A DNA stretch of 64,000 bases from the IMG/VR virus record IMGVR_UViG_3300010158_000036, positions 32,001 to 96,000 of that record; one strand, given 5' to 3'. Below, piece by piece: positions 1-43,696 of the stretch. Position 1 is the first letter of the stretch, and each line of letters starts with the position of its first letter. This DNA comes from a virus. A model generated the notes under the pieces. It saw only the letters and a program-made list of their open reading frames with translations. It was not told where the DNA came from and made no database searches. The translations under genes and the position numbers were made by a program.

Positions 1-717
1 ATATGTGTATTTTCTATATGAGCTAGAATTAACTAATTCCGTCCATGAAGATAATCTTGGTATATTTTCTGAAATTCTATTATATAAGAAAAAAGGTGAA
101 CCAACAGAATCAAATAGCTTGGATCTTAACCATTCAGCAGCTCTAAGAGGACTTTGAATGGTGATAATCCCATCAAACATAGTTATTGGAAGTTTTTTTG
201 GTACAAGTAATTTTACATTAAGATCATCTTTAAAGATATTATAGATGTTTGTGAGAACATTGTTTTTTATAGACCGAGATATTTTTGTAAGAGCTGATAG
301 ATAAGCAAAATCCGATATAGCAATAAGAGAATATTTTTGAATATTAGGAGATGATGCTAACTTTTCATAATTAGGATATTCAAGAACTGTTAATTTCAAC
401 TTAATATTTTTTACGGGAGTTGCTGAATTGATTTCTGGATTATTACTAATCTTTTCAATTTCAATATTGATTATTTCTTGTCCATTAATACCAAAATCTT
501 CAAAGAAATTAATCGTATCTTTTATAGTTGCCGATAATGTTATTACTGGGGAAAACAACTCTTCAGTTATAGTGAAAGATTCTACAATTCGACGAATATC
601 TCTAACTTCATTCTTTGAGTTTGTTATATCAAACTTAATAAGATTGAAGGCGGATGGAATATTAGCAATTCCATTCTCAATACCCTTTGGTGTATTCCTT
701 GTAATGATATTAGTCAT
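1..717 (-). CDS. Baseplate hub/tail protein (gp27-like), runs off the window start
   Basis: Not in the ORF track. Manual translation from ATG 717: MTNIITRNTPKG...DIRRIVESFTITEELFSPVITLSATIKD...; open to position 1, directly downstream of gp53. Confidence 0.55.
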   Translation of the reverse strand, partial: MTNIITRNTPKGIENGIANIPSAFNLIKFDITNSKNEVRDIRRIVESFTITEELFSPVITLSATIKDTINFFEDFGINGQEIINIEIEKISNNPEINSATPVKNIKLKLTVLEYPNYEKLASSPNIQKYSLIAISDFAYLSALTKISRSIKNNVLTNIYNIFKDDLNVKLLVPKKLPITMFDGIITIQSPLRAAEWLRSKLFDSVGSPFFLYNRISENIPRLSSWTELVNSSSYRKYTY

Positions 718-718
718 A

Positions 719-1711
719 TTAACTATTCAAAACTGAGAAGTATGCAGATGCAAAATCAGCAATTCTATCGGCTCGGATGATTTTAATTTGAGTTTTGGCA
801 TCATTTGTTATAGTCTCAATATCTTGAAAACTTTTATATATTGGTTCGTTTGTTCCTAACTTAATTAAGTCATATACATTTCTAATATTCCCAAATGTAT
901 CATAATATGTATGAGCTGCATTATAGTATAAAGACCAATTGTATGGATATGATATGACAGTTTTATTATTTATTTCTGATGTAACACTAAGCGGAATATA
1001 CACTGAATGAAATATAACATCATTTATATCAGCCCCAGTTTCTATAATAGTTTTCCAGGCAGACTCTTTTAATCCGTTAGCCACATACATGGATTTCATG
1101 ATAGATAACCATTCAAGTTTTAGAGGAGAATTGACTACATTAGGCTCATGCCAAGAAAGTGAATAATGTGGAGATGATATAAAAGAATCTCTAGAATTAG
1201 AAGATATATCATAGATAATCAATTGTTGCCTAGCCGAATCAAATTTTAGAATTTTAGCACTACTTCCTACATCATTATTTAAACGCAAATATGGAAGATA
1301 CTTTGAATTCAAGGGAGTTAAACTAAAATCCATGAGATCATCTTTATTTTTAATATCAATTAAAGATTCTGGAGTAAATGTAATAACTGAATATGGAGAA
1401 TATTCAGCTTCTATCATACTATTTAAATCATAATAAGACATTGGCCATGCCTCATTGAGACCGTCTTTGAGAAACGAATTTAGAATAAAGAAAGTCCAAT
1501 AATAGTCGGAAGTTCCATATAGATCATATGATACTGTATCTGGTCTATCTCCATCACGAATAGTATAGTAGGTATAAACCGATGCATCATCGGGAAGTTT
1601 TGATGCAGTCACTGAAACCTCTTGTGTAATATTAGTGAGATTTGTAACAGAACCATCACCATAAAGATCATATGGTATTGTAGAGTATTTGGAAAAGAAT
1701 GGGGTTGGCAT
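719..1711 (-). CDS. gp53: Baseplate wedge subunit gp53-like
   Basis: FFSKYSTIPYD N-terminus and LysM-like YTIRDGDRPDTVSYDLYGTSDYYW; T4-like synteny. Confidence 0.85.
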   Translation of the reverse strand: MPTPFFSKYSTIPYDLYGDGSVTNLTNITQEVSVTASKLPDDASVYTYYTIRDGDRPDTVSYDLYGTSDYYWTFFILNSFLKDGLNEAWPMSYYDLNSMIEAEYSPYSVITFTPESLIDIKNKDDLMDFSLTPLNSKYLPYLRLNNDVGSSAKILKFDSARQQLIIYDISSNSRDSFISSPHYSLSWHEPNVVNSPLKLEWLSIMKSMYVANGLKESAWKTIIETGADINDVIFHSVYIPLSVTSEINNKTVISYPYNWSLYYNAAHTYYDTFGNIRNVYDLIKLGTNEPIYKSFQDIETITNDAKTQIKIIRADRIADFASAYFSVLNS

Positions 1712-1722
1712 GATAGATTAAA

Positions 1723-2727
1723 TTAAAGGCCTCCTACCCTTGTACCGGATGCATTACCCCCAAGATATTGAGGAAGAGTTCCTAGAGGACCAGCTTTACC
1801 GACTCCATCATTATTAATAGGAGGAAGCGGACTTATTAAATCAGATGATGATGAATTCGGCGCAGCAACATCTGGAGCAACATCTGGAGTAAATACATTG
1901 ATGCCAGTTCTCTTTGGTTTATCACTATTCAGACTTAGAATATCTTCATATGTAAGTGCTCTTGTTTCTTTAAATGATACAGTTAATTCAGTTGCAAACG
2001 GAGCAGAATCATTTCTCCACATATTATTAGAAGAGTTGAAAGTAGAATCAACACTTTCCAGATAACAATCAAATATCTTTGGAATATGATCGAGTTCTTT
2101 TATTTCATTTCCTCCGCTAAAAGCAACAAACCGAATAGTCCAGGATGGCGGATATAATAATTGAAATCCATTTGAAACTGGATAAACCCCTGATCGGAAA
2201 GCATATACAATACGTCTAATAAGATCAGCTTCAGGAGCACTACTAGGTATTAAATTAAATTTAAAAGTAAATGTCCTTGTACCAACTCCAGAAAATTCTG
2301 TATTTACATAAGGATTGAAAATAGTACCTGCCCCAATAGATGCCGCTGAAGATATATTAGGAGAAACTGATTTCAATCCTTTTAGAACAAGTGAAGCTAT
2401 TTCTTCCTTAGATCCACCTAATTGTTGCTTGGCGTTATCAAATACTCCTTTGATAGCATCCATATTTGCACCACCTTGTAAAGATCCAGCAACTGCATTC
2501 CCAATAACTCCAAGTTCTTTTGCCGTATAAGTTGAACTATCGGCCGTAGAAATTCCAGTAGGAATTGGTAGTGCTATCATTGGAGCTTGTGCTCGCAATC
2601 TAATATTCGATGATGCCACATTCTTATTATTCTGAGTAAATACAACCATTGGCCTATAAGTCGTAGATGCAACCATAATATCCAATGGAAATATTAATGG
2701 AGCTGAAGACTGTGAGTTATTTGCCAT
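1723..2727 (-). CDS. gp48: Baseplate tail-tube cap gp48-like
   Basis: IFNPY..EFSGVGTRTFTFKFNLIPSS..EA..I and ELTVSFKETRAL; start moved to ATG 2727, just downstream of a late promoter. Confidence 0.85.
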   Translation of the reverse strand: MANNSQSSAPLIFPLDIMVASTTYRPMVVFTQNNKNVASSNIRLRAQAPMIALPIPTGISTADSSTYTAKELGVIGNAVAGSLQGGANMDAIKGVFDNAKQQLGGSKEEIASLVLKGLKSVSPNISSAASIGAGTIFNPYVNTEFSGVGTRTFTFKFNLIPSSAPEADLIRRIVYAFRSGVYPVSNGFQLLYPPSWTIRFVAFSGGNEIKELDHIPKIFDCYLESVDSTFNSSNNMWRNDSAPFATELTVSFKETRALTYEDILSLNSDKPKRTGINVFTPDVAPDVAAPNSSSSDLISPLPPINNDGVGKAGPLGTLPQYLGGNASGTRVGGL

Positions 2728-2735
2728 GATAAATA

Positions 2736-2743
2736 TATTTATA
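2736..2743 (-). promoter_or_regulatory. T4-type late promoter TATAAATA (gp48-gp53 operon)
   Basis: Exact consensus on the minus strand, 8 nt before the ATG; gp33 is present in the window. Confidence 0.75.
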
Positions 2744-2744
2744 T

Positions 2745-3224
2745 ATGTCAAAGTACTATTCTGGAAAATTTCGTCCAAAAAACATTTCTAAGTATGAAGG
2801 ACAATATGATAATATACAATATAGATCATTATGGGAACGACAAGTATTTAAATGGTGTGATGAAAATCCTAGTATAATTTCATGGTCTTCAGAAGAAACT
2901 GTAGTTCCATATGTTTGTAGAACTGATAATAAACACCATCGGTATTTCGTTGATCTCAAAATTACCTTCTCTAATGGTAAAACTTTTCTAATTGAAATCA
3001 AGCCAAAAGCTCAAACTATTTTACCTAAAAAACCTGCACGGCAAACTCGAAAGTTTCTTTTGGAAGTTCTTACTTATACAAAAAACCAGTCAAAATGGCA
3101 CGCAGCAGAAGCATATGCACATCAAAGAGGTTGGGAATTTGAGGTTTGGACTGAAGATTCTTTGGCAGATTTAGGAATCAAGCTTATTATTGAACGAGCT
3201 CCTAAACCAAAAAGGAAGATATAA
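2745..3224 (+). CDS. gp4: Head completion protein gp4 (TnsA-like nuclease fold)
   Basis: YSGKFRPKN..KY.G, YRSLWE, WSSEE, HRYFVD, LIEIKP. Confidence 0.9.
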   Translation: MSKYYSGKFRPKNISKYEGQYDNIQYRSLWERQVFKWCDENPSIISWSSEETVVPYVCRTDNKHHRYFVDLKITFSNGKTFLIEIKPKAQTILPKKPARQTRKFLLEVLTYTKNQSKWHAAEAYAHQRGWEFEVWTEDSLADLGIKLIIERAPKPKRKI

Positions 3225-3235
3225 ATAATATCTAT

Positions 3236-3823
3236 ATGATATCTTTTAAAACTTACATCTTATTGGAAAATTCTGATTATCGAGGAAACCATTCAGCCCC
3301 CATGAATACTCCAGATAAGGCGCCTCTTCACAAACTAGATATGATATATCCCGATGATATCTATAGTTTAGATGCCGCAAGACTATACGGTGATATGGGT
3401 GGAGATTTGAATGATAGGATTTCTATAAGCCTTATAAAGGCTTATAGAAATAAGCCCAATGCAAAGGTTACGATTTATCGAGCAGTTCCTAAGATTTTAA
3501 GTAATTCTGAGAAGTTGTCTAAATTGAAAACAATGAAATATAACTTCATGAGCAGAAAGTTAATTCCTAGATCTTACAAAGGGGATAAGAAGCTTTTTTA
3601 TGATTGGGTTACAAAGGAGATAGAGGAAGTTAAAGATAAACCAAACACAGCCAAACTTGTTATTTCTCCTGGAGATTGGGTTACTTTAAATAGACAATAT
3701 GCAGTTAATCATGGATTAGGAGAATTGCGGGGCAATTATAGAATTCTCACTAAGACTGTGTTAGCCAATCAATTATTTACAGATGGTAATTCAATTCATG
3801 AATTTGGATATGATCCCAGTTAA
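3236..3823 (+). CDS. Late protein with ADP-ribosyltransferase-like motifs, putative internal head protein
   Basis: TATAAATA at 3220-3227; N-terminus MISFKTYILLE; motifs IYRAVP, PGDWVTL..YA..HG, HEFGY. Confidence 0.45.
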   Translation: MISFKTYILLENSDYRGNHSAPMNTPDKAPLHKLDMIYPDDIYSLDAARLYGDMGGDLNDRISISLIKAYRNKPNAKVTIYRAVPKILSNSEKLSKLKTMKYNFMSRKLIPRSYKGDKKLFYDWVTKEIEEVKDKPNTAKLVISPGDWVTLNRQYAVNHGLGELRGNYRILTKTVLANQLFTDGNSIHEFGYDPS

Positions 3824-3835
3824 TAAATATTTAAT

Positions 3836-4405
3836 ATGGTGATCTCTAATTCAAATTCTCTTTTTCAAAAACTACATGCTGAAGCTAAATCGGCCGGAAT
3901 CATTCCTAACACGATAGCATCACATAAATGGTTTTTATCAAAGTTATCAGGAATGCGACAGACTATTGCCGAACGCACAATTATTACGGATACTTCATTA
4001 AAGTCTGGTAATAGAGCTAAAATAGGAAAAATGTATGCTTTTCGATATGATCCTAAACATAAATTAACTCTTCCATTGTATGATGCATTTCCCTTAATTT
4101 TAATGGTTGGTCCTGCAAAAGGAGCTAATGGAGAACAGGGATTCTATGGACTCAATCTTCATTATCTTCCTCCACAAGCTCGGGCGGTTTTCTTTGATAG
4201 ACTTATGTCTTTTACCAATAAAAGATATGATGCAAATACACAAATTCGTTTATCATATTCTATGCTTAAATCTGCATCAAGATTGAAAGCATTTGAACCT
4301 TGTTTTCATATGTATTTGCTAAAACACATGAAAGGATTTGCCGTAGAAATTCCTGCAACAGAATGGGAAATTGCTTTGTTCATGCCTTGCGAAAACTTCA
4401 AATAA
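3836..4405 (+). CDS. gp2: DNA end protector protein gp2
   Basis: GKMYAFRYDPKHK..LP.YD.FPL, GFYGLNLHYLPP, EWEIALFMP. Confidence 0.9.
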   Translation: MVISNSNSLFQKLHAEAKSAGIIPNTIASHKWFLSKLSGMRQTIAERTIITDTSLKSGNRAKIGKMYAFRYDPKHKLTLPLYDAFPLILMVGPAKGANGEQGFYGLNLHYLPPQARAVFFDRLMSFTNKRYDANTQIRLSYSMLKSASRLKAFEPCFHMYLLKHMKGFAVEIPATEWEIALFMPCENFK

Positions 4406-4412
4406 ATTTTAT

Positions 4413-5261
4413 ATGGCTATTACAAATCCTATTCCTCCAAAGAACACTTCTAAATCAGATCCAAAAACTCTACTTTCTAGAATTCAAGCTAGACAAGGTC
4501 TGTCCAGGAGTAATAGATTTTATGTGGATTTCAGTGCTGTCGGCACTTTATTCCAAGTTGATAATGTTCAGTTGGATGATCTTAATTATTTTTGTGAAAC
4601 ATCTTCAATTCCTGGAAGAACAATAGAAACAGTTGAATATGGTATATGGCATCGACCAATTAAATTGCCTGCAGGTTATACTAACGATGATGTTACAATG
4701 ACATTCCATATGACCAATGATTTCTTTGTTAAGAAGTTATTGGATTTATGGATGGGAAAGATCATTAATATTGATACATATCTTTTGAATTATGATAATG
4801 AATATAAAACTTCCATCAAGCTTTATCAATTAGATCAAAGTGATAAAATTATATATGGTGTAGAACTTATAGAAGCATATCCATATACAGTAAAAGCGTT
4901 AGAATTGAATAATGGTATTGAAAATGAAATAGTTTCATGTTCGGCTTCATTTACATATAAAGACTTTCGTGTTATTTCTGTTACAAATTCTGATATAACA
5001 TCAAATCCTATTTCTGTTAATAATCAATATAACAATAGTGCTCCTGTTCCTGGCTCGTCATTAACTCCATTACAGCCAGCCAATAATCCATCTTATCAAA
5101 CTATAGCTCCGGCAACACCCGGATTGGCTCCTCAACCAGATAATCAACCTTCAATATTAGACACTTTAAACCCTTCATTCTTAGATCCAAGAGTTGTTCC
5201 GCCTATCACTTCTCCAACAACTCCTGATTATAAACCCATAATTCCACAAACTCCAGTTTAA
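4413..5261 (+). CDS. gp54: Tail-tube initiator gp54 / gp19-family tube protein with Pro-rich C-tail
   Basis: GLSRSNRFYV, CETSSIPGR, L.EAYP..V..LEL; position between gp2 and gp26. Confidence 0.75.
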   Translation: MAITNPIPPKNTSKSDPKTLLSRIQARQGLSRSNRFYVDFSAVGTLFQVDNVQLDDLNYFCETSSIPGRTIETVEYGIWHRPIKLPAGYTNDDVTMTFHMTNDFFVKKLLDLWMGKIINIDTYLLNYDNEYKTSIKLYQLDQSDKIIYGVELIEAYPYTVKALELNNGIENEIVSCSASFTYKDFRVISVTNSDITSNPISVNNQYNNSAPVPGSSLTPLQPANNPSYQTIAPATPGLAPQPDNQPSILDTLNPSFLDPRVVPPITSPTTPDYKPIIPQTPV

Positions 5262-5297
5262 TTTGAAGATATATATTATATAACACAATAATAAATT

Positions 5298-6005
5298 ATG
5301 GCACTTCCTATCATTACATCTCCGAGATATTCGCTTACTGTTCCGTCAACACAAAAAACTATAGAATTTCGTCCATTTTTGGTTAAGGAAGAAAAGATTC
5401 TCCTAATAGCACAAGAATCTTCGGATAATACAGAGATTATTCAAGCAATGAAAAATATTATTTCTGCTTGTACATTCAATAAAGTTGATCCTGAAACTCT
5501 TTCAGTATTAGACCTTGAATATATCTTTCTCAAGCTTCGTTCAAAATCTGTAGGAGAAATTGCAACTATTAATTGTAAGTGTACAAAGTGTAAGAAGTTT
5601 ACTCAAACCTCAATTAATCTTGAAGATATTAAGATTGATAATGATCCTAAAAAGAGCAAAATTATTATGCTTACAGATAAAATTGGACTTAATATGAGAT
5701 ATATTCAAGTTAAAGATATGAATGTTCTCATGAATGATAAGTCGGAAAAAACTGATATGATTACCGATATTGTTATTGCTTCCATTGCTAGTATTTTTGA
5801 TGATGTTGGGGTATATCTTTCAGAACAAACATCAAGAGAAGAAATGGAAACATTTATCAATTCTTTAAATAGAACTCAAATGTCTCTAATTGAAACTTTC
5901 ATTGCAGAAGCTCCAAAATTATCACATGTTGTAAAGTTTGTATGCTCTTCTTGTAAGGAAAAGAATTCTATAACATTGATTGGTGCACAAAGTTTTTTCG
6001 AGTAG
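5298..6005 (+). CDS. gp26: Baseplate hub assembly protein gp26-like
   Basis: MALP...P.Y.L..PST...I.FRPFLVKEEKILL, DLEYIFLKLRSKSVGE, two CxxC pairs, ends GAQSFFE. Confidence 0.9.
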   Translation: MALPIITSPRYSLTVPSTQKTIEFRPFLVKEEKILLIAQESSDNTEIIQAMKNIISACTFNKVDPETLSVLDLEYIFLKLRSKSVGEIATINCKCTKCKKFTQTSINLEDIKIDNDPKKSKIIMLTDKIGLNMRYIQVKDMNVLMNDKSEKTDMITDIVIASIASIFDDVGVYLSEQTSREEMETFINSLNRTQMSLIETFIAEAPKLSHVVKFVCSSCKEKNSITLIGAQSFFE

Positions 6006-6196
6006 CGCTCTCTCACGCAAGTCTTGTGAACTTTTATCAAGAAATGTTTGCTCTTGCGCAATATCACCATTGGAGCCTAAATGAGTTAAATGATCTAATT
6101 CCTTGGGAAAAGGAAATCTATCTATCCTTACTCATAAATCATATTAAGGATGAGGAAGAGAAACAAAAAAGAGAGAGTCATAAATCATATAAATAA
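5999..6196 (+). CDS. gp51: gp51-like hub assembly segment, probably reached by -1 frameshift from gp26 (internal ATG at 6044)
   Basis: Manual translation RVALSHASLVNFYQEMFALAQYHHWSLNELNDLIPWEKEIYLSLL..., stop 6194-6196; not in the ORF track. Confidence 0.75.
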   Translation, partial: RVALSHASLVNFYQEMFALAQYHHWSLNELNDLIPWEKEIYLSLLINHIKDEEEKQKRESHKSYK

Positions 6197-6205
6197 AGAT
6201 GAACT

Positions 6206-8266
6206 ATGGCTAAAAAAATATCAAGAACTTCTTCTAATTCGGTTTCTCTTCAAGGAGGATTTCTTGATATTATTGATGAGATTAAAAAATCAAATCAAAT
6301 CGTCGGATCCATTGCAGAATCTATTAAAGTATTGGATACCGCCAAGTCTTTAGTATTAAAACCTACAGAAGGTCTTCATCATGAAATAGAAATGGGTTTA
6401 CTCAATATAGCAAATGTCGCAGCTATATTAAGAGAAATCAGAGATGATAAAAAATGGGAAGAGATAGTTAAATATACCAGATTAAGTGCAGAGAGAATAT
6501 TAACTCTCACTGAAGCTATTAGTAATATTAAGATAGTAAATCCGGTTACAAGTGCTATTTCTAGTAATAAACCTATGGGAGCTACTAGAGTATTAACGTC
6601 TCCAGGTAAACGAATAACAAAAATATCAAGTTATAGAGGATCTCGCCATCAAATGGTAGATACTTCAATCGAAACTCCTGGTGTAGGAAATCTATTAAAA
6701 GGTTTAATGTTAAGTATCACACCTCAATTTGTTTTTGATGTATATACAAACGGTATTCAGAAATTAGTCAATGTTATAAAATCAATAGATATTTCTTTAA
6801 TTGATGAAAAATTAAAACATCTTTCAGGACTATCAAGAATAGTTAAAGATATTCAAAGTATCAGTTGGATTGGTGTATTGAAAGGCGCATTGACTCTTAA
6901 AAGTCTTTCTCATATATATGCAATGGGTATACGAGCATTAGTAAATGCTTTGAGTACAATAGATATACCTAAAGAACTTGAAGAAAGAATCAGACTTTTT
7001 GCTCATATATTAGATCCTTTGGAAACTCTTCAGAATCTAAAATTCGTAAAGATGTTAGCAGGGTCTTTATTGCTATCAACTATTACCAATAATATAGTTG
7101 CAGGTCTAACACCATTAACATCTATACCTACTACAAAATTAGAAAAGTTAAAAAATGTAGGAATTATGTTACAAGAGGTATTTACTCCTATTGCAAAATT
7201 TCTTAGTTCTGTTGCGGGATCTCTAATGAAAGGAGCTTTAGGTATAACTTTATTGGGAGCTTCAATATTGCCATTTGTATTTTCATTGAAAATGATGGAA
7301 GGTATTAAAGAGGACACCATTGAAAATCTTGCTAAAGGCTTAGTAGTATTAGCTATTGCTGGCGGTGTACTTGGATCTGCATTACCAATGGTTGCGGCTG
7401 GAGCTTTAGGTATAACTTTATTGGGAGCCTCAATATTTCCTTTTATACTTGCACTCGAATCGCTACAAGGAATTGATTGGAAAATTATTGAGACTATTGG
7501 TCCAGCATTATCATCTTTAGCTGAAGGGGCAATACCATTAGTTCTAGCCGGTCCAGGTTTAACTTTAGGTGCTATAGGTCTTGGTTTATTTGCAGGAGGT
7601 CTTAAGTCGTTATCAATGGCAATGAATAATGATTCTGCTAAAACATTAACAACCTTTGTAACCAATTTAACAGATCTCACTAAGAATGTAACATTTACAA
7701 AACTTAAAGATATTGCTTTGGGAGTTGGTGCATTAGCCTTAGGTATTGCCGGACTTGGAGCTGGCACCGCAATTGATGGTATTCTATCATTCTTTGGTAA
7801 AAAACTAGGACTTACAATAGATCCAATTGCACAAATCATAAGTCTAGCTGAACGAGGTGCTGGTATCACTCTTGTTGGCGACGGTCTTAATAATATAGCA
7901 AAAGGCTTAGCGAGTATTGCAGACGCCGCTGATGGACTTAAAGCCTTAACTGATTTAGATATTGATAAACTTGAAAGTGTTGCAAAATTTCAAAAAGCCG
8001 TTTCCGCTGGATATACATCATGGGATGATTATAAAAGTCATGATTATAAAGATCGTAATGCAATTAAAACTATAGAACCTACTACAGGTATTAGTGTGAA
8101 CAGTGATGTCAGTAGATCACTTGGCGGGCAAGGAAGCTCTACTCCAATTATTGTTAACAATATTAACACTGGTGGTAATGTATCATCGAATAGTTCTAAT
8201 ATTATGAATAGTGTGATGATGGCCTCAGTACCCGGAAGCGGAATACCTGCATTATGGGATTATTAA
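6206..8266 (+). CDS. Tape measure / baseplate hub gp29-like
   Basis: 686 aa, Ala/Gly/Leu-rich helical, repeated GALGITLLGASI; follows gp26/gp51; TATAAATA at 6188-6195. Confidence 0.7.
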   Translation: MAKKISRTSSNSVSLQGGFLDIIDEIKKSNQIVGSIAESIKVLDTAKSLVLKPTEGLHHEIEMGLLNIANVAAILREIRDDKKWEEIVKYTRLSAERILTLTEAISNIKIVNPVTSAISSNKPMGATRVLTSPGKRITKISSYRGSRHQMVDTSIETPGVGNLLKGLMLSITPQFVFDVYTNGIQKLVNVIKSIDISLIDEKLKHLSGLSRIVKDIQSISWIGVLKGALTLKSLSHIYAMGIRALVNALSTIDIPKELEERIRLFAHILDPLETLQNLKFVKMLAGSLLLSTITNNIVAGLTPLTSIPTTKLEKLKNVGIMLQEVFTPIAKFLSSVAGSLMKGALGITLLGASILPFVFSLKMMEGIKEDTIENLAKGLVVLAIAGGVLGSALPMVAAGALGITLLGASIFPFILALESLQGIDWKIIETIGPALSSLAEGAIPLVLAGPGLTLGAIGLGLFAGGLKSLSMAMNNDSAKTLTTFVTNLTDLTKNVTFTKLKDIALGVGALALGIAGLGAGTAIDGILSFFGKKLGLTIDPIAQIISLAERGAGITLVGDGLNNIAKGLASIADAADGLKALTDLDIDKLESVAKFQKAVSAGYTSWDDYKSHDYKDRNAIKTIEPTTGISVNSDVSRSLGGQGSSTPIIVNNINTGGNVSSNSSNIMNSVMMASVPGSGIPALWDY

Positions 8267-35486: not shown

Positions 35487-36185
35487 TTATGGTTTATGTT
35501 CGTAAATTTCTTCAATATCAAGTATTCTGCTAGTGCATATTCCGTTGGGTGAAACAGCCCAATCTTTACAATGGAAATGACCTGCATAGTGCCTCTTTGC
35601 TCCACACTGTTCAATCAATTGATTATGAGCAATTCTTTCTGCATAGCGTTCATCCCATAGAGAAATGTCCTTCAATGTCCATGATGCAAGACCTTCTTTA
35701 TCGAAGGGGCCACAATATGCTGGGGCGGAGTGCGTAACAAGTACATCACATTGCACAACTTTATCTGGTTCATACACAAACTTTTCTCCAGCCCACCATG
35801 ATCGTCCAGGAACTCTATACAATCTATCAATAGAAATAGCGCCTCCTACAAATTGAATAAGTTCACTATTAATCACTTCTGTATAATAATCTGATAACAA
35901 CTTGAAATGAGATAATGTAATTTGCTTTGGACCTGAGAAATAATCCGGATCATCGTGATTCCCGCGGATAGACATGAAATGAATATCACGTGCTGCGAAA
36001 AGATCATTCAGTTTAGAGCATGCCCGCCATTCACCAGCTGCGCTATAATTAAAGCCGATGCCAAGATCACCAACACAAATGAGATAACAATTCGATAAAT
36101 CAATACGTTTCACTTGATCTACAAGACGACCAAATGCACCGTGAATATCTCCAATCAAAAGTAAAGGTTTGTTGTAATTAGACAT
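35487..36185 (-). CDS. Calcineurin-like metallophosphoesterase
   Basis: GDIHG, VGDLG, GNHD, THSAP, GHFH. Confidence 0.9.
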   Translation of the reverse strand: MSNYNKPLLLIGDIHGAFGRLVDQVKRIDLSNCYLICVGDLGIGFNYSAAGEWRACSKLNDLFAARDIHFMSIRGNHDDPDYFSGPKQITLSHFKLLSDYYTEVINSELIQFVGGAISIDRLYRVPGRSWWAGEKFVYEPDKVVQCDVLVTHSAPAYCGPFDKEGLASWTLKDISLWDERYAERIAHNQLIEQCGAKRHYAGHFHCKDWAVSPNGICTSRILDIEEIYEHKP

Positions 36186-36939
36186 AAGGTTTTCGGGATT
36201 CTAGGATGATATCTGCAGCAAGTTCTGTATCAAATTTATATGAAATCTTTGAAGTAGATATCACGGTTTCTAATTCATGAAACTTATTATTTACAATTTT
36301 TGTTAATTGTTCACAGGTGAAATTCTCAGGATGATTTTTGATTTCCATTAGAAAATCGTGATAAGCTTCATCAGTATCAGACACCTTTACCATATATTCA
36401 CCAGTCTTAAAAAAGACAATACCTACTTTGCATAGGCGAAGAATTTGAACAAAATTCTTTGGGGAGAATCCATACTTGTTAATAGTATTTTTTCTGAGTG
36501 ATCCAAGCTGACCTGATCGCTCTCCTGTAGCAAGCCGAATTTCAGAATAAACATATCCCTTTAACGAAGATTTTAATAGATTGGTGTCGATTAATTTATA
36601 TCGGTAATAATGAATTGTTTTGAATAAATCTGTCATACATGTAAATGCAGATTCTGGAGCAAATAAAATTTCAAGTACTTGTGTATTTGTTTTTCTCAAT
36701 AATTTTAAGTACCGAGAAAGTTCATAATATGTGGAGTCAATTTCATTTGTTTGAACAATAGACTCAATTGTATCAAATCCAGTAATATATTTCTTATCAG
36801 TTGCAACGAAAAGCCCTCTATAGTCTACGTCGCTGTAACTATTATGCAAATTATACAATGTGCTGCCGCCAATCAGTTGACAAATCAGCTTACCATTACA
36901 ATTAATAAATGCCGGGTGTTTAGTAATGTCAGTTTCCAT
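36178..36939 (-). CDS. Pol-beta superfamily nucleotidyltransferase (NrdC.11-like)
   Basis: GGSTLYNL....SDVDYRGLF, N..VLEILF. Confidence 0.8.
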   Translation of the reverse strand: METDITKHPAFINCNGKLICQLIGGSTLYNLHNSYSDVDYRGLFVATDKKYITGFDTIESIVQTNEIDSTYYELSRYLKLLRKTNTQVLEILFAPESAFTCMTDLFKTIHYYRYKLIDTNLLKSSLKGYVYSEIRLATGERSGQLGSLRKNTINKYGFSPKNFVQILRLCKVGIVFFKTGEYMVKVSDTDEAYHDFLMEIKNHPENFTCEQLTKIVNNKFHELETVISTSKISYKFDTELAADIILESRKPYV

Positions 36940-36977
36940 ATGATTATTATATTAGGATTAGTTAGACTTGCAAATAG

Positions 36978-37463
36978 TTAAATTGGGATTGGCAGCCTTA
37001 CTACAGTTACTTGCAATTCATTCAATTCTTCTCCGACAATTTTCAGAACTGTATTCCAATCACCTCCAGCTCGGTCAGAACCCATACGATACGGAATTCC
37101 GATTTCGGTCACTCTATTTCTCAACAGATACTCTTGAGTTTTTGCAAGACATGTTCTCAATGCTTCATAATCAAGATGTTGTTTTCCTCTACCATAATTT
37201 TGTTGAGCGTGAAGATTAATTACACATTTTTTAAAATTTGGTAAATATGGCCAAGCATAAGAAATAGTACCAAGAACAAGCCCATGCTTTTCTTGGTATT
37301 TTTTATAGTTAGTGTATGCTCCAGGAACATAATTACGAATAGAAAATGCAATTCCAGATCCCATTACTCCTTGACAATTACATATATGAGCGATGGCACA
37401 ATGATTACCTTTGTGAAAATAATCGTGTAACAGATCCCCATCAATTTCAATAATATTATTCAT
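36978..37463 (-). CDS. Macrodomain protein (ADP-ribose hydrolase-like)
   Basis: GDLL, IAHICNCQGVMGSGIA, PYRMGSDRAGGDW. Confidence 0.9.
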   Translation of the reverse strand: MNNIIEIDGDLLHDYFHKGNHCAIAHICNCQGVMGSGIAFSIRNYVPGAYTNYKKYQEKHGLVLGTISYAWPYLPNFKKCVINLHAQQNYGRGKQHLDYEALRTCLAKTQEYLLRNRVTEIGIPYRMGSDRAGGDWNTVLKIVGEELNELQVTVVRLPIPI

Positions 37464-37466
37464 ATT

Positions 37467-37817
37467 TTACCACCAAGAATCATATACAATTTCCAAACCA
37501 GCTTTAAGATAATTTCGGGCATTTACAATGAATTGTAAATCATCATTTCTATGATATTTTATATTATATGATTCAGTACTATTATAGAATGAATCTTGAT
37601 TAATACATAATTCCAAAGCATCAATATCAGCAGAAGTGATATCTACGCAAACACAATTGAATTCTTCTGTGTTTCCTTTGGAGCGCCATAGAGTTTCCAT
37701 CCAATCATGAATTGGATAATGCTTTCTCCAATAATGAAATTCTTTCAAAACAGAAAGAGAATTTGGTAAACGATAGTATGCGTATGAATCAAGTCCCATA
37801 TGATTACTTCTTTTCAA
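37467..37817 (-). CDS. Conserved hypothetical phage protein
   Basis: MGLD.Y, YWRKH..IH.WM, C-terminal YDSWW. Confidence 0.6.
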   Translation of the reverse strand: MKRSNHMGLDSYAYYRLPNSLSVLKEFHYWRKHYPIHDWMETLWRSKGNTEEFNCVCVDITSADIDALELCINQDSFYNSTESYNIKYHRNDDLQFIVNARNYLKAGLEIVYDSWW

Positions 37818-38040
37818 TTACAAGATACGTATTATCAATAATAGACCAGTTATAGGTTGTGCCTAGATATATAGATTTTTCTTTCAAGTCTCCGCAACTA
37901 GTAACCTGTATATTCAGGTTTGGTTCGCCAAGAGCATCGGCAAGACAGACACAAATATAATCAATATGATTTCTTGCATCATAACCACCATTCAAAATGG
38001 CAAGATTAATAACATTTTTAGACTTCAGTTTTTCCTTGGC

Positions 38041-38089
38041 TTTCTCTAGTTTAGCTTCCTCTAGTTTAGCTTCCTCTAGTTTAGCTTCC
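38041..38089. repeat. 15-bp tandem repeat x3 (LEEAK) in ORF 37804-38322
   Basis: tctagtttagcttcc repeated. Confidence 0.8.
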
Positions 38090-38640
38090 AAATACTTCAG
38101 ATTCTTTTTAGTCTCTTTAAGTTCTGCTATAAGTGATTCAATGTTAGAAGCACCTACAGGAATTTCTGCAAAACACTCGGTAGGGTAACAATAGAGATAT
38201 CCTTGATCATTAATAACTTGATATCCATCCGCACTGATACTCTCGACGATATATTCGCGGTTGAGAGTTAGAGCTCCATAAACTTTTCCCAGATCCACAC
38301 ATTTCACCATTTTTTTATTCATATTAATGTATTTTTAGATTTCTAAATCTCATTTTGTGTAATATTCTCGTTCAGCTTCAAAATCTTTCAAGCCCCCCCC
38401 CCCATTCTTTTTCCATTTCATCAGAAATATCCATTAGAGCATCAACTGGGTCCCGATAAGACCAGAAGCCGAAGAATTCATCTTCTTGACCTTCAAGCTT
38501 AGTTCTGGCTTTCTTATCAAAAAACAATCGGTTATCTCGACAATGAGAACACGATCCATGGCACCGACAAGTGTAATCAAACCTGCGCGAATCGTGCTTA
38601 CGAGGATAATCTTGTTTTTTGGAGCGACTCATATTGACTT

Positions 38641-38777: not shown

Positions 38778-39590
38778 ATGATTATCAATACATATTTGCA
38801 GAAACCCGGAGGAATGGGGTTAGGAGATTTCCTTAGAGGATCCTTAGCGCTTTATCAAATGAGTCACCGATATAGTGTAAGAGCAGAAATTGACTTCAGC
38901 CATCACCCCATAGGTAAATATCTAGTTCCATCTCATAATGTTGATATGTCAAAATTTGAAATAATAGAAGCATGCAATATTGGTAATTATACGATAGCCG
39001 ATTTAAGAGACCTTATTGCAAGGCGCTACAGATTTTCATATCTTGCTCGTAATGCGAATAATATTTGTGTTTATACAAACGTATTTCCTAAATTTCCGAT
39101 AACAGAAGAAATCAAGCAAAGTATGCAACGAGCCTTGATTCCAACTCCTGAATTACAAGACTTAATTCCTCAATATGAGCAAGCATATGAGGTGATTCAT
39201 ATTAGATCGGGAGATTTAATTGCATTCGGAACGTGTTACGATTATACTGTAAATCTTGATAAAGATTATTTGGTTGCATCCATTATAGGCTCTATAAAAC
39301 AAATCGTAGCAAACAGTTCATGCCCAGTGTTAATAATGTCAGATTCTCTTGAATTGAAAACTACATTAACTGAACTTTGTGGTACGGTTAAAACTGAAAC
39401 AACCCCAGCACATGTAGGAAATGATTTTAATGGAGTTGTAGATACATTGATAGATTATTTCACCCTAACAAAAGCTAGAAAAATACATCAATTTACAACC
39501 CATTTTTGGGGCAGTGGGTTTTCGGATTCAGTCTCGTGGATCTTTGACATACCAATTCAGAAATATCCTCTTATAGAGAATAGATTATAA
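38778..39590 (+). CDS. Fucosyltransferase-like glycosyltransferase (NodZ/GT-B type), late gene
   Basis: GLGDFLRG, IHIRSGD, IMSDS, DYFTL..A, SGFS; TATAAATA at 38753-38760. Confidence 0.65.
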   Translation: MIINTYLQKPGGMGLGDFLRGSLALYQMSHRYSVRAEIDFSHHPIGKYLVPSHNVDMSKFEIIEACNIGNYTIADLRDLIARRYRFSYLARNANNICVYTNVFPKFPITEEIKQSMQRALIPTPELQDLIPQYEQAYEVIHIRSGDLIAFGTCYDYTVNLDKDYLVASIIGSIKQIVANSSCPVLIMSDSLELKTTLTELCGTVKTETTPAHVGNDFNGVVDTLIDYFTLTKARKIHQFTTHFWGSGFSDSVSWIFDIPIQKYPLIENRL

Positions 39591-39591
39591 T

Positions 39592-40131
39592 TTATCCATC
39601 GTATCCCGGCTCAACCAAAAATCCTTGTTTTGAGCTAAAGATAAATGTCCTAATTGCTTCATCTGATATAAGAATTTTCTCCACAGCTTTCACAAATTCA
39701 GATACGGATCCATGTCCAAGATCGGAACAGAAATCACAGAAAGTATCTACGAGGGAATCATTGAATGAATCTTCATCAACGGCTTCTACTACAGTATATG
39801 GGGATATTGTAACATTCCTTTTCAAAGAATACTCATAAGATGTTAATGAAGTTACAACCTTAGCCTGTGTGAATAGTTCGATGATAGTGATAAGCCTATC
39901 AAATAATGTCTGATTTCCAGTCTTTACAGCAAAGAATAATAGTAGAGCACTTTTATCCTGAGGCGTTGCGTTTGAAGCATTGGGGCCAGATTCTAACGCA
40001 ATCTGAATCTCATTATTTTTATTAGGAATAAATGTACAATCAAGAGGATTTTGAGGATTCATCGGACAGATGGAGAACGCAGATGTACTGGAGCTGTTGC
40101 TCTCCCATACGGATTTTCTTATTGTTTTCAT
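39592..40131 (-). CDS. 'E[ST]NSSST'-motif protein A
   Basis: N-terminus MKTIRKSVWESNSSSTSAFSI. Confidence 0.7.
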   Translation of the reverse strand: MKTIRKSVWESNSSSTSAFSICPMNPQNPLDCTFIPNKNNEIQIALESGPNASNATPQDKSALLLFFAVKTGNQTLFDRLITIIELFTQAKVVTSLTSYEYSLKRNVTISPYTVVEAVDEDSFNDSLVDTFCDFCSDLGHGSVSEFVKAVEKILISDEAIRTFIFSSKQGFLVEPGYDG

Positions 40132-40384
40132 ATGTTTATTTTGTGTTTATACTTCTGTGGTTCCAAAGAATACTGTTTTATTTGATAACTTTTTTTGACT
40201 TGGATAATAATATGATCCTTCTGCCGGATCATTTCCGTCCCAATTTACGAACAATAAATCCGTTCTGGTTCTATATTCATTCTTAGTAACAATATCAATA
40301 TTTCTTTCTGGAGTTTTCCAACGAAATCCCGCAATATACAGATTTTCAGTCATCTTATAGAGATTCTGTTCAAGTTGAATTCTA

Positions 40385-40747
40385 CTAATTCCAAGGAATC
40401 ATTACAATACTCTTTCGCATTACTTTTTGTTCATATAAAGCAATCGTATTCATTAGAGTGCTCATACCTTGTTGACGAACGCCCAAAATAATCTTAGTGT
40501 TCTGAACTGCGATATAAGAACACTTTGAACCTAATGAAGAATGATTGTTACTATATTCCTCATAATAAAGAGTTTGATATGAATTCATCTCGAATCCATT
40601 CGCCATAAGAAAGAATTCCTCAAAGGAGATAAGTTCTTTTACATTCGGTATTACAGGTTCTGCTTTAGGAAGCTCTGTTCCTTTTAGAATGCCCATTGAT
40701 GCTGCAGTAACAAGCAAGGAATTAATAACAAATGGTCGACGTTTCAT
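40385..40747 (-). CDS. Hypothetical: twin-Arg-like leader plus terminase-ATPase-like fragment
   Basis: MKRRPFVINSLLVTAA; YQ...IILGVRQQGMSTL. Confidence 0.35.
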   Translation of the reverse strand: MKRRPFVINSLLVTAASMGILKGTELPKAEPVIPNVKELISFEEFFLMANGFEMNSYQTLYYEEYSNNHSSLGSKCSYIAVQNTKIILGVRQQGMSTLMNTIALYEQKVMRKSIVMIPWN

Positions 40748-40753
40748 ATTTAT

Positions 40754-41713
40754 TTATTTTTCTGATAGAATTAAATTACCACAAGTGATTTTACTTTCAT
40801 CTTCTTCTTTACTAGCAATGAATACAATTACATCATAACCAGCATTTTTTAGAGCAGTCTCTGTCGATGAATATGGTGTATATTCAGTCCAATCACCAGA
40901 AGGCATCATGTTCTTATTATTAACTGCTCTAGTTTTATGTAAAGGTGTGAGCTTGCATAAATAATATTCTGGATCAAAATACTTAAGTAAAACATCTGGA
41001 TCAATTTCCCAATCGCCAAGCGCAAAATTAAGAGTAATCTTACGACCTTTGGGAACAAGACCTTTCATGATTTTTGTAATATCTTCAAGACTTGATTGAC
41101 TTTTACCAAACATCTTATTGCGATGAATCTCATTGGTGCTATTAATGGAAAGTTGTAATCCGGCTTCACCATCAAGCAAGTGATTCTTAATATCCATCCA
41201 TTCATGAATAAATGTTTTCAGCCTTGTATTGTCCTTGGGCATCATGGTGGAAACAACAGGATGAATTTTGTGATTTCTATCAATTGCTGATTTCATCCAG
41301 CCTGTAACTTCTAACACTGCGAAATTCCATGACGGCTCTCCCATTCTGGCAAAATGGAGATTGAGACGATTACTATAACTCACTTCTGGGTGTAAAGATA
41401 GTCCAGTTAATATTTGATTTCTCATATCTGAGAATGTTGCATTAACCCCTTTACCAAGTTTTGGAACATCACAGAACGTGCAACGCGAATTACACCCATA
41501 TTGAGTTGAGAGTGTAATTACCCATTTTTCTTCCAATGGTAATAGCTTGGTATGACATACCTGACTCAGTTCTCTATCAAGACCCATAAAGTCAGCTTTG
41601 AGATTAACATCCTTGCCATAATCGCCAATAGATAACATCTCTAATTTACCAACTTCTCCTTGAACAATTAGAATATCTCCTGTAGGAACTTCAATACGCT
41701 TTAGAATGTTCAT
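40754..41713 (-). CDS. RlmN/Cfr-like radical SAM protein
   Basis: STQYGCNSRCTFC, FARMGEP, LQLSINS, C-terminal TCGNL. Confidence 0.8.
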   Translation of the reverse strand: MNILKRIEVPTGDILIVQGEVGKLEMLSIGDYGKDVNLKADFMGLDRELSQVCHTKLLPLEEKWVITLSTQYGCNSRCTFCDVPKLGKGVNATFSDMRNQILTGLSLHPEVSYSNRLNLHFARMGEPSWNFAVLEVTGWMKSAIDRNHKIHPVVSTMMPKDNTRLKTFIHEWMDIKNHLLDGEAGLQLSINSTNEIHRNKMFGKSQSSLEDITKIMKGLVPKGRKITLNFALGDWEIDPDVLLKYFDPEYYLCKLTPLHKTRAVNNKNMMPSGDWTEYTPYSSTETALKNAGYDVIVFIASKEEDESKITCGNLILSEK

Positions 41714-41716
41714 ATA

Positions 41717-42670
41717 TTAAATTTTTACCTTTGCAAACAAATTCCGAATATCTTCAGAACCATCAAATTTAAACCTTACATTCGATGTTGAAGCCCGAGC
41801 AAAATTCTGCTCAACTGCATCGCAATAGCATGTATGATTTCCGTCAAGACCTTGAAAATTTTCAGCCCAAATCTCTTTAGAAACTTGATTCTGTAGATCT
41901 AGTTGATCCAAGCCTAGATTGTCGAAGCTAGCAATAATCCCATCAATCTTAAATAGTTCCTGTATATATTCATTTTTCCATTTATCAAGTTCGAGTTGCA
42001 ACGCAGGATTGTAATAAGAAATACCATTGCCGAACTGTTTGTACCCGAGCAACAAAATCTTCGGTTTGATATTACGAGCTTTACTCCATTCGATAACGGC
42101 TTTGCAATCATTAAGATTATGCACACCAAGAATCAAATGAAACACAACATTTTTATATTCAATATTAGTAGGCAACTGTTTCAGAGAGACAGGACCGCGA
42201 TATGAAATGCCAAGTCCATAAATGAGTTTCTCATCTTGAAATTGTTGAATCATGACTGCATATTCCTTCATGTGCAGTATATTCATTGTCACATTAGATA
42301 TAACACCGTATTCTTTCATAGTCTCCAGAAAGTCTTTAATATCGGGATGTGACAAAGGATTACCACCTCCGATTGCTAATTCAGTTCCGAGCTTTTGAGT
42401 CTTCCAGATTTTCTTTATAGGTTCTAGATTCGCGTGGCGGCCAGATATGTTAGATTGCTCATGACAGTAAACACACACTGAACTTAATGAGCAGTTGTTG
42501 GTAATTTTGATGTCTGCGCTTTCTGGATATTCTACCCACGGATTTTCCTCATCAGGCCATTCGCGAATTTTAGTCCCGTCACTATAAATTTCTACATTTA
42601 CATTGCCATTCTTATAGGAATATAGTAGTTCTGTTGCTTCAATTTTGTTCATAATAATAGTGTGTTTCAA
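41717..42670 (-). CDS. Radical SAM protein (CX5CX2C)
   Basis: YKNGN...DGTKIR, DIKITNNCSLSSVCVYCHE, ELAIGGGNPLSHP, N.T.N. Confidence 0.85.
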   Translation of the reverse strand: MKHTIIMNKIEATELLYSYKNGNVNVEIYSDGTKIREWPDEENPWVEYPESADIKITNNCSLSSVCVYCHEQSNISGRHANLEPIKKIWKTQKLGTELAIGGGNPLSHPDIKDFLETMKEYGVISNVTMNILHMKEYAVMIQQFQDEKLIYGLGISYRGPVSLKQLPTNIEYKNVVFHLILGVHNLNDCKAVIEWSKARNIKPKILLLGYKQFGNGISYYNPALQLELDKWKNEYIQELFKIDGIIASFDNLGLDQLDLQNQVSKEIWAENFQGLDGNHTCYCDAVEQNFARASTSNVRFKFDGSEDIRNLFAKVKI

Positions 42671-42970
42671 TTTGATCTAAAGTTTTTTATTTGTAACCAT
42701 TTACATCGTGTGGATATGCAATCAACTCAGTTTTAAGTTTAGTTTCATTATCTTGAATCCATTGTTTGCCGTCAGGATCGGTTGTAAAACATACAAAATC
42801 TGGCCGATTCATAATTTTATCAATTATATGATCAAGATTTTCTAAATCTCTTAAAATTGGATCTCTTTTAATGACGTCAAATCCTGATTCATTAGAAATC
42901 CAAAATAACAGGAGAGCTGGATATTCCTGTTTACGAATAAAATCTATGATGAATTCTTTCCGATCTTTTT

Positions 42971-43696
42971 TTAGACATTTGTGTTTGTTTCAATTTCATA
43001 ATGTAAAATATGGTTGCTTAGAATGATATATTCCCCAGATTTATAATCATACTTTTCAATTACTGCTTGAATTGTTTCATTATCAATGGTCAGAATTTTC
43101 ACACGACCGTCAGTATAAGCATCTGGTTCCAAATAGTTATATGTAGCAGCACTAGCATATTCATTAATAGTACTTTGTTTCAAATCTCGTAAAGCATATC
43201 GCAGAGTTTTATCTTCGAGTAATGTTAGAAAATATGGAGCTTTCTCAAGTTGATGTTGTGTTAATCGAAAATTTGGAGGGTCATCATCATTATCATTTCC
43301 AAGGAAAATCCAAGAAGATTCTGAAATCATGAAATCCATCAAACCTTCATCAGTATCGAGTTGAGGATTTTCTTTAATCCAAGTAGAGTAATGTTCTGTT
43401 CCATTATCGACATACCAGAATTGATCTGTTCGAGGTTGTAGAAGCTCAAAGTTATATTTTCTGGAAAGCCGTACCATTCTATCAAATAAAGGATGATTCT
43501 GGTTATTATGAACTAAAGCCCAGAAGTAAGATGCTTTGGTTACAAAATCGTTAAACCTGACAAATTCCCAACCAAAAAACTTTCCCTCAATTTCAAGACC
43601 ATCTACAGAAGATTTTCTTGTATAAGAAGTGTCGATTGCTACGGAATGTGTTGACGAAGAATTTGTTTCCCACACGGATTTTCTAATTGTTTTCAT
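42971..43696 (-). CDS. 'E[ST]NSSST'-motif protein B
   Basis: N-terminus MKTIRKSVWETNSSSTHSVAI; FGWE, K.SY, IFLGNDN. Confidence 0.7.
   Translation of the reverse strand: MKTIRKSVWETNSSSTHSVAIDTSYTRKSSVDGLEIEGKFFGWEFVRFNDFVTKASYFWALVHNNQNHPLFDRMVRLSRKYNFELLQPRTDQFWYVDNGTEHYSTWIKENPQLDTDEGLMDFMISESSWIFLGNDNDDDPPNFRLTQHQLEKAPYFLTLLEDKTLRYALRDLKQSTINEYASAATYNYLEPDAYTDGRVKILTIDNETIQAVIEKYDYKSGEYIILSNHILHYEIETNTNV

Follow-up and report, generated by a model that had tools for sequence, protein, structure and literature searches.

A gene run in the virus record IMGVR_UViG_3300010158_000036 encodes a small radical S-adenosylmethionine (SAM) enzyme together with two proteins that begin with nearly the same peptide, and this combination of enzyme and tagged partner points to a widespread and undescribed enzyme-partner module, which probably serves protein modification. 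The window, by which we mean the whole stretch of DNA analysed, is 64,000 nucleotides long and comprises bases 32001-96000 of the 109-kb IMG/VR record (G+C ~34%; CheckV completeness estimate 53%). The enzyme, rSAM2 (41717-42670, minus strand; 317 aa, phrog_16999), is a compact radical SAM protein and the conserved partner of the tagged proteins. The tagged proteins themselves are open reading frame (ORF) B (42971-43696, minus strand; 241 aa, isoelectric point (pI) 4.9), a member of the main family of such proteins, and ORF A (39592-40131, minus strand; 179 aa, pI 4.6), which belongs to a small lineage-specific family. The rSAM2 gene follows ORF B at a distance of 301 bp and precedes ORF A by 1.6 kb, and all three are on the same strand. 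A preliminary description of the region had proposed that the shared peptide is a tag recognized and modified by the enzyme, and this first reading was checked with program-made ORFs, BLASTP, profile searches, retrieval of related loci, and prediction of structures and complexes.

Both ORFs exist as described, and 15 of their first 16 residues are identical. The tag of ORF B (MKTIRKSVWETNSSSTHS, residues 1-18) is encoded at 43643-43696 and that of ORF A (MKTIRKSVWESNSSSTSA) at 40078-40131, both on the minus strand, the latter being atypical in having S11 for the usual T and S17 for the usual H. When the two proteins are compared by BLASTP only residues 1-21 align (16/21 identical, E 8e-8 for the pair), and translation of the entire 109-kb record in six frames shows the motif only at the starts of ORF A and ORF B; these two results rule out chance as the source of the shared tag. 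Among the 13 degenerate codons that specify the same residue in both copies, 7 differ, including two serine switches between AGY and TCN, so the synonymous divergence noticed in the preliminary description is real. Seven of the first 10 codons are identical between the two genes, and the DNA upstream of the ATG is unrelated. Because the synonymous codons differ and the upstream DNA is unrelated, we consider the two copies of the tag to be old and kept by selection on the peptide, and the proposed purifying selection is borne out by residues that were retained while 7/13 synonymous sites changed. Recent gene conversion as the source of the shared tag is ruled out by the same 7/13 sites and by the unrelated upstream DNA.

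The further claim that the proteins share no similarity after the tag holds for BLAST but not for profile comparison, which points to remote homology of the bodies. Aligned with hhalign, the ORF A family and the main family match with a probability of 98.8% when the tag is included; with the first 22 residues removed the alignment is collinear (E 7e-4, probability 27%). ORF A has seven relatives, which have invariant motifs of their own (ATPQDK, GHGS and IFSSxQG) and all carry H17, the residue that is S17 in the ORF A of the window, which also has S11. Judged from these sequence comparisons, ORF A and the N-terminal domain of ORF B are probably remote paralogues, ORF A having lost the FGW and GNDN motifs.

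Far from being confined to this genome, the motif stands at the head of a family of thousands of clusters. A word-indexed search with ORF B returned 48 homologues, and a profile search of 1.84 billion cluster representatives (50% identity) returned 5890 at E <= 0.001 and 2902 at E <= 1e-10, with nearly all matches beginning at residue 1. The consensus tag is M-K-x-I-R-x-x-V-F-E-T-N-S-S-S-T-H-S. In 240 distinct tags from the fetched loci E10, N12 and S13-15 are conserved at 100%, R5, T11 and H17 at 99% and F9 at 95%, and the motif always starts 9-10 residues after Met. ORF B fully matches [ED]-T-N-S-S-S-x-H preceded by I-R-x-x-V-F, and ORF A matches except at S11 and S17. In the 48-sequence alignment the invariant positions are R5, E10, N12, S13, S14, S15, H17, F41, G42, W43 and Y57, as well as D97, G133, N134, D135 and N136. 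In ORF B the invariant FGW, DH and GNDN motifs lie in an N-terminal domain (residues ~1-145), which is followed by a C-terminal alpha+beta domain (152-241). The tagged proteins are strongly acidic, with a pI below 5.5 in 98% of 291 distinct proteins (median 4.6). They are found in cyanophages, in the Lak megaphages of the gut, in many jumbo-phage contigs, and in contigs binned with Bacillota, Bacteroidota and bacteria of the candidate phyla radiation (CPR). Short members of the main family (~135-170 aa; for instance gp130 of the Microcystis phage Ma-LMM01, P0036 and P0048) have a conserved [FY]-[FY]-K-G-N at the extreme C-terminus, whereas the long form, of which ORF B is an example, lacks this ending and has the extra alpha+beta domain instead.

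No model in Pfam, NCBIfam or PADLOC matched the tagged proteins, and the only PHROGs match for ORF B is phrog_28997, a family of unknown function. The AlphaFold2 model of ORF B is confident overall, with a predicted local distance difference test (pLDDT) score of 90.9, but its residues 1-12, the best-conserved part of the protein, stay below 50. A Foldseek search of the Protein Data Bank (PDB) with this model gave nothing at E <= 0.001. The wide VIA-align search gave weak matches only (Z <= 5.5), all to residues 152-241 (cystatin/NTF2-like folds and AcrIE2); the N-terminal domain, which this search barely covered, matched no solved structure. A search of BFVD with ORF B returned uncharacterised proteins only, and the ESM Atlas returned unnamed viral clusters, apart from one Tad2-like row at TM 0.50.

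The genes for the tag and for rSAM2 are linked, and this linkage is specific and reciprocal across very different phages. An rSAM2 homologue is present in 75/79 viral loci found through the motif and in 39/52 loci from genome assemblies; several of the 13 assembly loci that lack it are short contig ends or long arrays of tagged genes. Motif proteins occurring mostly without this enzyme, the outcome named beforehand as speaking against the proposal, are therefore not what we find. In the opposite direction, 62 of 67 distinct viral rSAM2 loci have a tagged ORF within 8 kb, and a protein with a main-family body is present in 56 of the 67. In every one of the 38 non-redundant viral groups the tag genes and rSAM2 share a strand, and rSAM2 mostly lies directly downstream of the tag gene, with gaps ranging from -37 to ~+1300 bp and often overlapping or 0-16 bp. 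No other gene was found to be common across the viral loci, and no protease or exporter was linked to the module in them. Furthermore, an 878-aa metagenomic protein, P0196, is a natural fusion of a main-family tagged body and an rSAM2 homologue. A LAGLIDADG intein interrupts its rSAM2 part immediately ahead of the GGG(E/N)P strand, and the tag of the fusion has A for the otherwise invariant E10. The search for longer fused forms covered proteins of 628-2000 aa, a range set by the longest row of the alignment.

A single locus contains from one to eight tagged ORFs. Stripped of the tag, the bodies sort into at least five groups without BLAST similarity to one another: the main family with FGW, DH and GNDN, a group of 96-156 aa without those motifs, the ORF A type, and two further groups. 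Two rumen contigs from metagenome-assembled genomes (L124 and L125) each encode eight tagged proteins in 7 kb (~700-7500), and no rSAM2 is present in the 12-kb loci fetched; the enzyme for these arrays may lie further away. Within a locus the tags resemble each other irrespective of the body. Over the eight residues before the invariant Glu, identity is 64% within a locus and 50% between loci for pairs whose bodies BLAST does not relate, and 51% for pairs with related bodies in different loci (within-locus excess, permutation p <= 2e-4). In the window, for instance, both copies have K-S-V-W, and all three copies in the nearest related locus (L001) have H-N-T-Y. As synonymous sites differ, a genome-specific partner explains these concerted tags better than recent conversion does. 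Residue 3 of the tag (T or Q) also covaries with enzyme residues 36-38, its predicted contacts, which is no more than suggestive, with phylogeny not controlled for.

The model of rSAM2 (pLDDT 93.5) has a three-stranded N-terminal sheet followed by a full barrel. The protein scores 23.8 bits against PF04055, below the cut-off of 29.5, but the Foldseek probability to radical SAM structures is 1.00, and the three-cysteine motif and the barrel place it in the radical SAM superfamily. The cluster motif, C60-x5-C66-x2-C69 (42464-42493, minus strand), consists of cysteines that are invariant in 36 homologues. The unusual CX5CX2C spacing remarked on in the preliminary description is indeed present in the enzyme of the window but is not a trait of the family, since most homologues have CX3CX2C; it is a two-residue loop insertion common to the window, L001 and L062, and two other loci (L007 and L059) have longer insertions. 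Among 37 rSAM2 sequences no conserved cysteine was found outside CX(3-12)CX2C, so there is no SPASM or twitch cluster motif. The nearest solved folds by Foldseek are CteB, SuiB, GDGT-MAS, SkfB, BlsE, EpeE, the anaerobic sulfatase-maturating enzyme (anSME) and MoaA (TMq 0.44-0.57, 10-15% identity), as well as DesII, and these are mainly peptide- or protein-modifying enzymes. Pfam and NCBIfam gave no hit to a PqqD-like (winged-helix) recognition element in rSAM2, and its modelled N-terminus is the three-stranded sheet that is predicted to bind the tag. The start of the gene is ambiguous, being either TTG at 42670 or ATG at 42652 (residue 7), and residues 1-9 have a pLDDT below 50 in the monomer model.

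Prediction of enzyme-peptide complexes had been proposed as a check, and such a prediction places the ORF B peptide in rSAM2 (0.86 against 0.01 for the control). The complex was modelled from rSAM2 and residues 1-145 of ORF B, each supplied as an alignment, and SAM and a [4Fe-4S] cluster were included. The scores were 0.88, 0.86 and 0.86, the best control reaching 0.01. At least 88% of contacts recur between the runs, and the partner has a pLDDT of at least 82. The score mark that we used is reached by 58/80 solved complexes and 2/110 mismatched pairs, and these counts are only roughly valid here, as the pair was run with our own alignments and with ligands present. In the predicted complex, residues 2-9 of the tag pair with residues 31-38 of the N-terminal hairpin of the enzyme, and from residue 9 onward the peptide contacts the invariant barrel residues E97, T128, G152/G154, H178, K211, F249-L252, Y282 and S294. 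Residues 1-27 of ORF B all lie within the predicted interface, at which invariant residues are enriched both in the enzyme (17/27, p 2e-5) and in ORF B (12/16, p 9e-4). We regard the module and the direct contact as well supported, and consider it very probable that the tag family and the rSAM2 family work as a physical pair.

The same module is found in cultured or complete phages, namely in Ma-LMM01 (gp130/gp129/gp128) and in the Lak megaphages, in whose records no function is assigned to the module proteins either. Ma-LMM01 gp130 has the tag and GNDN, and gp128, annotated as an 'Fe-S oxidoreductase', aligns with rSAM2 at 38% identity across 95% of its length. Unlike the window, Ma-LMM01 has a single tagged protein, which is of the short form (166 aa, ending YKGN), and the canonical CX3CX2C. 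The published transcriptome of Ma-LMM01 infection places gp128, gp129 and gp130 in one middle-class profile, B5, and a middle promoter is predicted and listed only before gp130 (PMC5780444, supplementary table). Because of the shared profile and the promoter found only before gp130, we conclude that the homologous module of Ma-LMM01 is expressed as a unit in the replication phase.

Starting from what is observed in sequences (the tag, its conservation, the reciprocal linkage and the fusion) and from the predicted binding mode, we suggest that the region is one copy of a widespread two-component phage module in which a compact rSAM2 would act on one to several acidic 'client' proteins. The segment x-I-R-x-x-V-F would add as a strand onto the N-terminal three-stranded sheet of the enzyme, in a manner resembling the binding of a leader peptide to the recognition element of maturases for ribosomally synthesized and post-translationally modified peptides (RiPPs). 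The invariant serine-rich segment would thereby be threaded into the barrel beside SAM and the [4Fe-4S] cluster, where the 5'-deoxyadenosyl radical could abstract a hydrogen from a tag residue, Ser13-15 being the best candidates, and a post-translational modification would be installed. ORF B would be the core client and ORF A an accessory, divergent client with a perhaps impaired tag, and the second radical SAM protein of the gene run, rSAM1, would be a passenger together with the small ORFs. We lean, by a little more than an even balance, towards the idea that the tag is a substrate modified by rSAM2, and we favor it because many tagged proteins go with one enzyme, their bodies are unrelated and the tag is unpacked. 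The more complete idea, in which a minimal radical SAM enzyme without auxiliary clusters recognizes an 18-residue tag and performs radical chemistry on the Ser-Ser-Ser of acidic effectors, whose modified residue or protein-derived cofactor is needed in the replication phase, for example in countering host defences, is one that we put at slightly less than evenly balanced.

Several observations weigh against the tag being a substrate. Modification of the tag, like the kind of chemistry and its role in infection, is inferred. The complex model gives contacts and a model's confidence rather than a measurement, and it covers ORF B only; the tag of ORF A lacks T11 and H17, each of which is 99% conserved. 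The covariation of tag residue 3 with enzyme residues 36-38 is uncorrected for phylogeny, and rSAM2 lacks the SPASM or twitch clusters that its most similar peptide-modifying enzymes use. The body of the main family has the invariant polar residues D97, H98, N134, D135 and N136, several of them at the modelled interface, and given these polar invariants, the fusion and the overlapping genes, a permanent subunit fits equally well. The proposal that the peptide is a recognition and modification tag through which the enzyme at 41717 acts on both partners is, then, partly supported.

The permanent-subunit alternative would have the tagged proteins as stable, interchangeable subunits whose tag plugs the barrel and, itself unmodified, supplies residues of the active site or the substrate-binding site (E10, N12, S13-15 and H17), with the different bodies directing the enzyme to a nucleotide, a nucleic acid or a host protein. 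We consider this rather unlikely but a serious contender. It accounts well for P0196, in which a main-family body and the enzyme form one chain, for the translational coupling or overlap of tag and enzyme genes, for the main-family member in 56/67 enzyme-anchored loci, for the invariant polar body residues at the modelled interface and for the lack of auxiliary clusters; a run of ~9 consecutive invariant residues would also sooner be expected of an active site than of a substrate motif. It has difficulty with the up to eight tagged proteins per enzyme gene, many of them of 96-130 aa without FGW, DH or GNDN, since such a many-to-one arrangement is typical of clients, and a peptide that fills the barrel leaves little room for another substrate.

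Two further explanations dispense with a tag that is read by rSAM2. The motif could be the first strand and catalytic loop of paralogous enzymes of the same pathway that do not bind rSAM2. Alpha/beta enzymes often carry motifs at their extreme N-terminus, the main family has enzyme-like invariant residues, and ORF A and ORF B are probably distant paralogues; however, the motif region is unpacked in the monomer model of ORF B, the complex model scores far above its controls, the fusion P0196 exists, several tagged groups lack all the other motifs, and tags are concerted within a genome, which makes this explanation very improbable in our judgment. Even less credible to us is that the tag is a signal for capsid targeting or processing, with V-F/W-E followed by T as its would-be cleavage site. 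The internal proteins of phage T4 have an N-terminal targeting sequence, and the prohead protease cleaves after I/L-x-E; likewise, several unrelated small proteins of one phage share an extreme N-terminus here, with hydrophobic-x-E at residues 8-10. Such a signal would explain neither why the tag is reciprocally linked to a single radical SAM family, nor why N-S-S-S-T-H-S stays invariant past the putative cut site, nor the complex prediction, and the Ma-LMM01 homologues are middle and not late genes.

The closest precedents are the RiPP maturases CteB/CteA, SuiB/SuiA and SkfB/SkfA, whose enzymes are among the best structural matches of rSAM2 (Foldseek E 3e-8 to 3e-7, TMq 0.49-0.57). As in those systems, one enzyme is encoded together with several clients that carry a conserved N-terminal recognition sequence, and the predicted recognition, like leader binding, is a strand addition onto a small N-terminal sheet. 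Unlike the RiPP maturases, rSAM2 has no SPASM or twitch cysteine motif and no detected PqqD-type domain, and the clients are folded, acidic proteins of ~100-320 aa rather than short peptides. The part that is recognized and the presumed target are furthermore one contiguous 18-residue N-terminal tag, and the setting is a phage in which neither protease nor exporter is linked. A second comparison is with anSME/AtsB and the sulfatases, where a radical SAM enzyme acts on a Ser or Cys that lies within a short, invariant sequence motif of its folded target and thereby generates a catalytic residue; anSMEcpe is a structural match of the rSAM2 model (TMq ~0.5-0.55). The anSMEs, however, depend on two auxiliary clusters, of which rSAM2 has none. 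Nor is the sulfatase motif C/S-x-P/A-x-R conserved in the tagged proteins, and no sulfatase or other Pfam family matched the 48 family members.

A possible bacterial analogue from an immunity context is the KpAvs2 operon, whose accessory genes encode a radical SAM protein with no known role (Avap1) and, beside it, a small protein whose function is likewise unknown (Avap2, DUF6375) (PMC11564622). Here, unlike in KpAvs2, there is no STAND ATPase, and DUF6375 (PF19902) has no match at E <= 10 in the 109-kb record and none at E <= 1 in the 48 family members.

The remaining genes of the run appear to be unrelated to the module. Read along the minus strand the order is ORF B, a 41-aa ORF, rSAM2, rSAM1, a 120-aa ORF, a 68-aa ORF and ORF A. 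The preliminary description had treated the two radical SAM proteins as a pair and the second, rSAM1 (40754-41713, minus strand; 319 aa, CX3CX2C, phrog_24834 of unknown function), as RlmN-like; the pairing is not borne out, and the likeness to RlmN/Cfr is weak. rSAM1 reaches 27 bits against TIGR00048, for which the cut-off is 290, and only residues 51-132 around the cluster motif align. Homologues of rSAM1 occur in only 3/79 tag loci. Its closest cultured relative, at 50% identity, is encoded by Bacteroides phage Versailles (L133, 5001-6008), in whose complete 58-kb genome we found no tagged protein. These two findings rule out rSAM1 as a member of the module and make it an unrelated passenger, and since the Versailles homologue has no tagged protein beside it we consider rSAM1 to represent a separate, also uncharacterised, family of phage radical SAM proteins. 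In Versailles the gene sits among replication genes (ParB-like, Holliday junction resolvase). The 41-aa ORF (42687-42812, minus strand), which lies between ORF B and rSAM2, is of uncertain gene status, and neither the 120-aa ORF (40385-40747, minus strand) nor the 68-aa ORF (40147-40353, minus strand) matched any family; homologues of all three were sought in the related loci (79 tag loci) and none was found. A megablast of the region against phage records gave no match, and a scan for sigma-70 promoters and terminators found sites no more frequently than in shuffled sequence.

Beyond ORF A, the only sizeable plus-strand gene nearby (38778-39590, 270 aa) ends 1 bp before the stop of ORF A, and its product matched no Pfam or PHROG family. 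A 172-aa protein encoded at 37804-38322 (minus strand) contains a short run of EAKLE-type repeats (EAKLEEAKLEEAKLEKAKEKLK) and matched no family. Upstream of the module, three adjacent genes at 35487-37463 (minus strand) encode a calcineurin-like phosphoesterase (35487-36185), an RlaP-type nucleotidyltransferase of an RNA-repair pathway (36178-36939) and a macro domain protein (36978-37463), which together could form a cluster for RNA repair or for reversal of ADP-ribosylation, that is, counter-defence.

The preliminary description knew of no described function for this module, and our literature search on the motif string, on phage radical SAM proteins and anti-defence, on jumbo phages and on Avs2 likewise found no description of it. 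The tagged family, with its 5890 representatives, has no Pfam model and no solved fold, and no paper on it was found. Should rSAM2 indeed modify the tag, an enzyme of unusually small size would be performing a new kind of radical SAM reaction, one that acts on whole proteins, and the tag would offer a portable 18-residue handle for enzymatic protein modification. Whether the tagged proteins are substrates or subunits of rSAM2, a sizeable portion of the phage 'dark matter' expressed in infection has now been assigned a testable partner.

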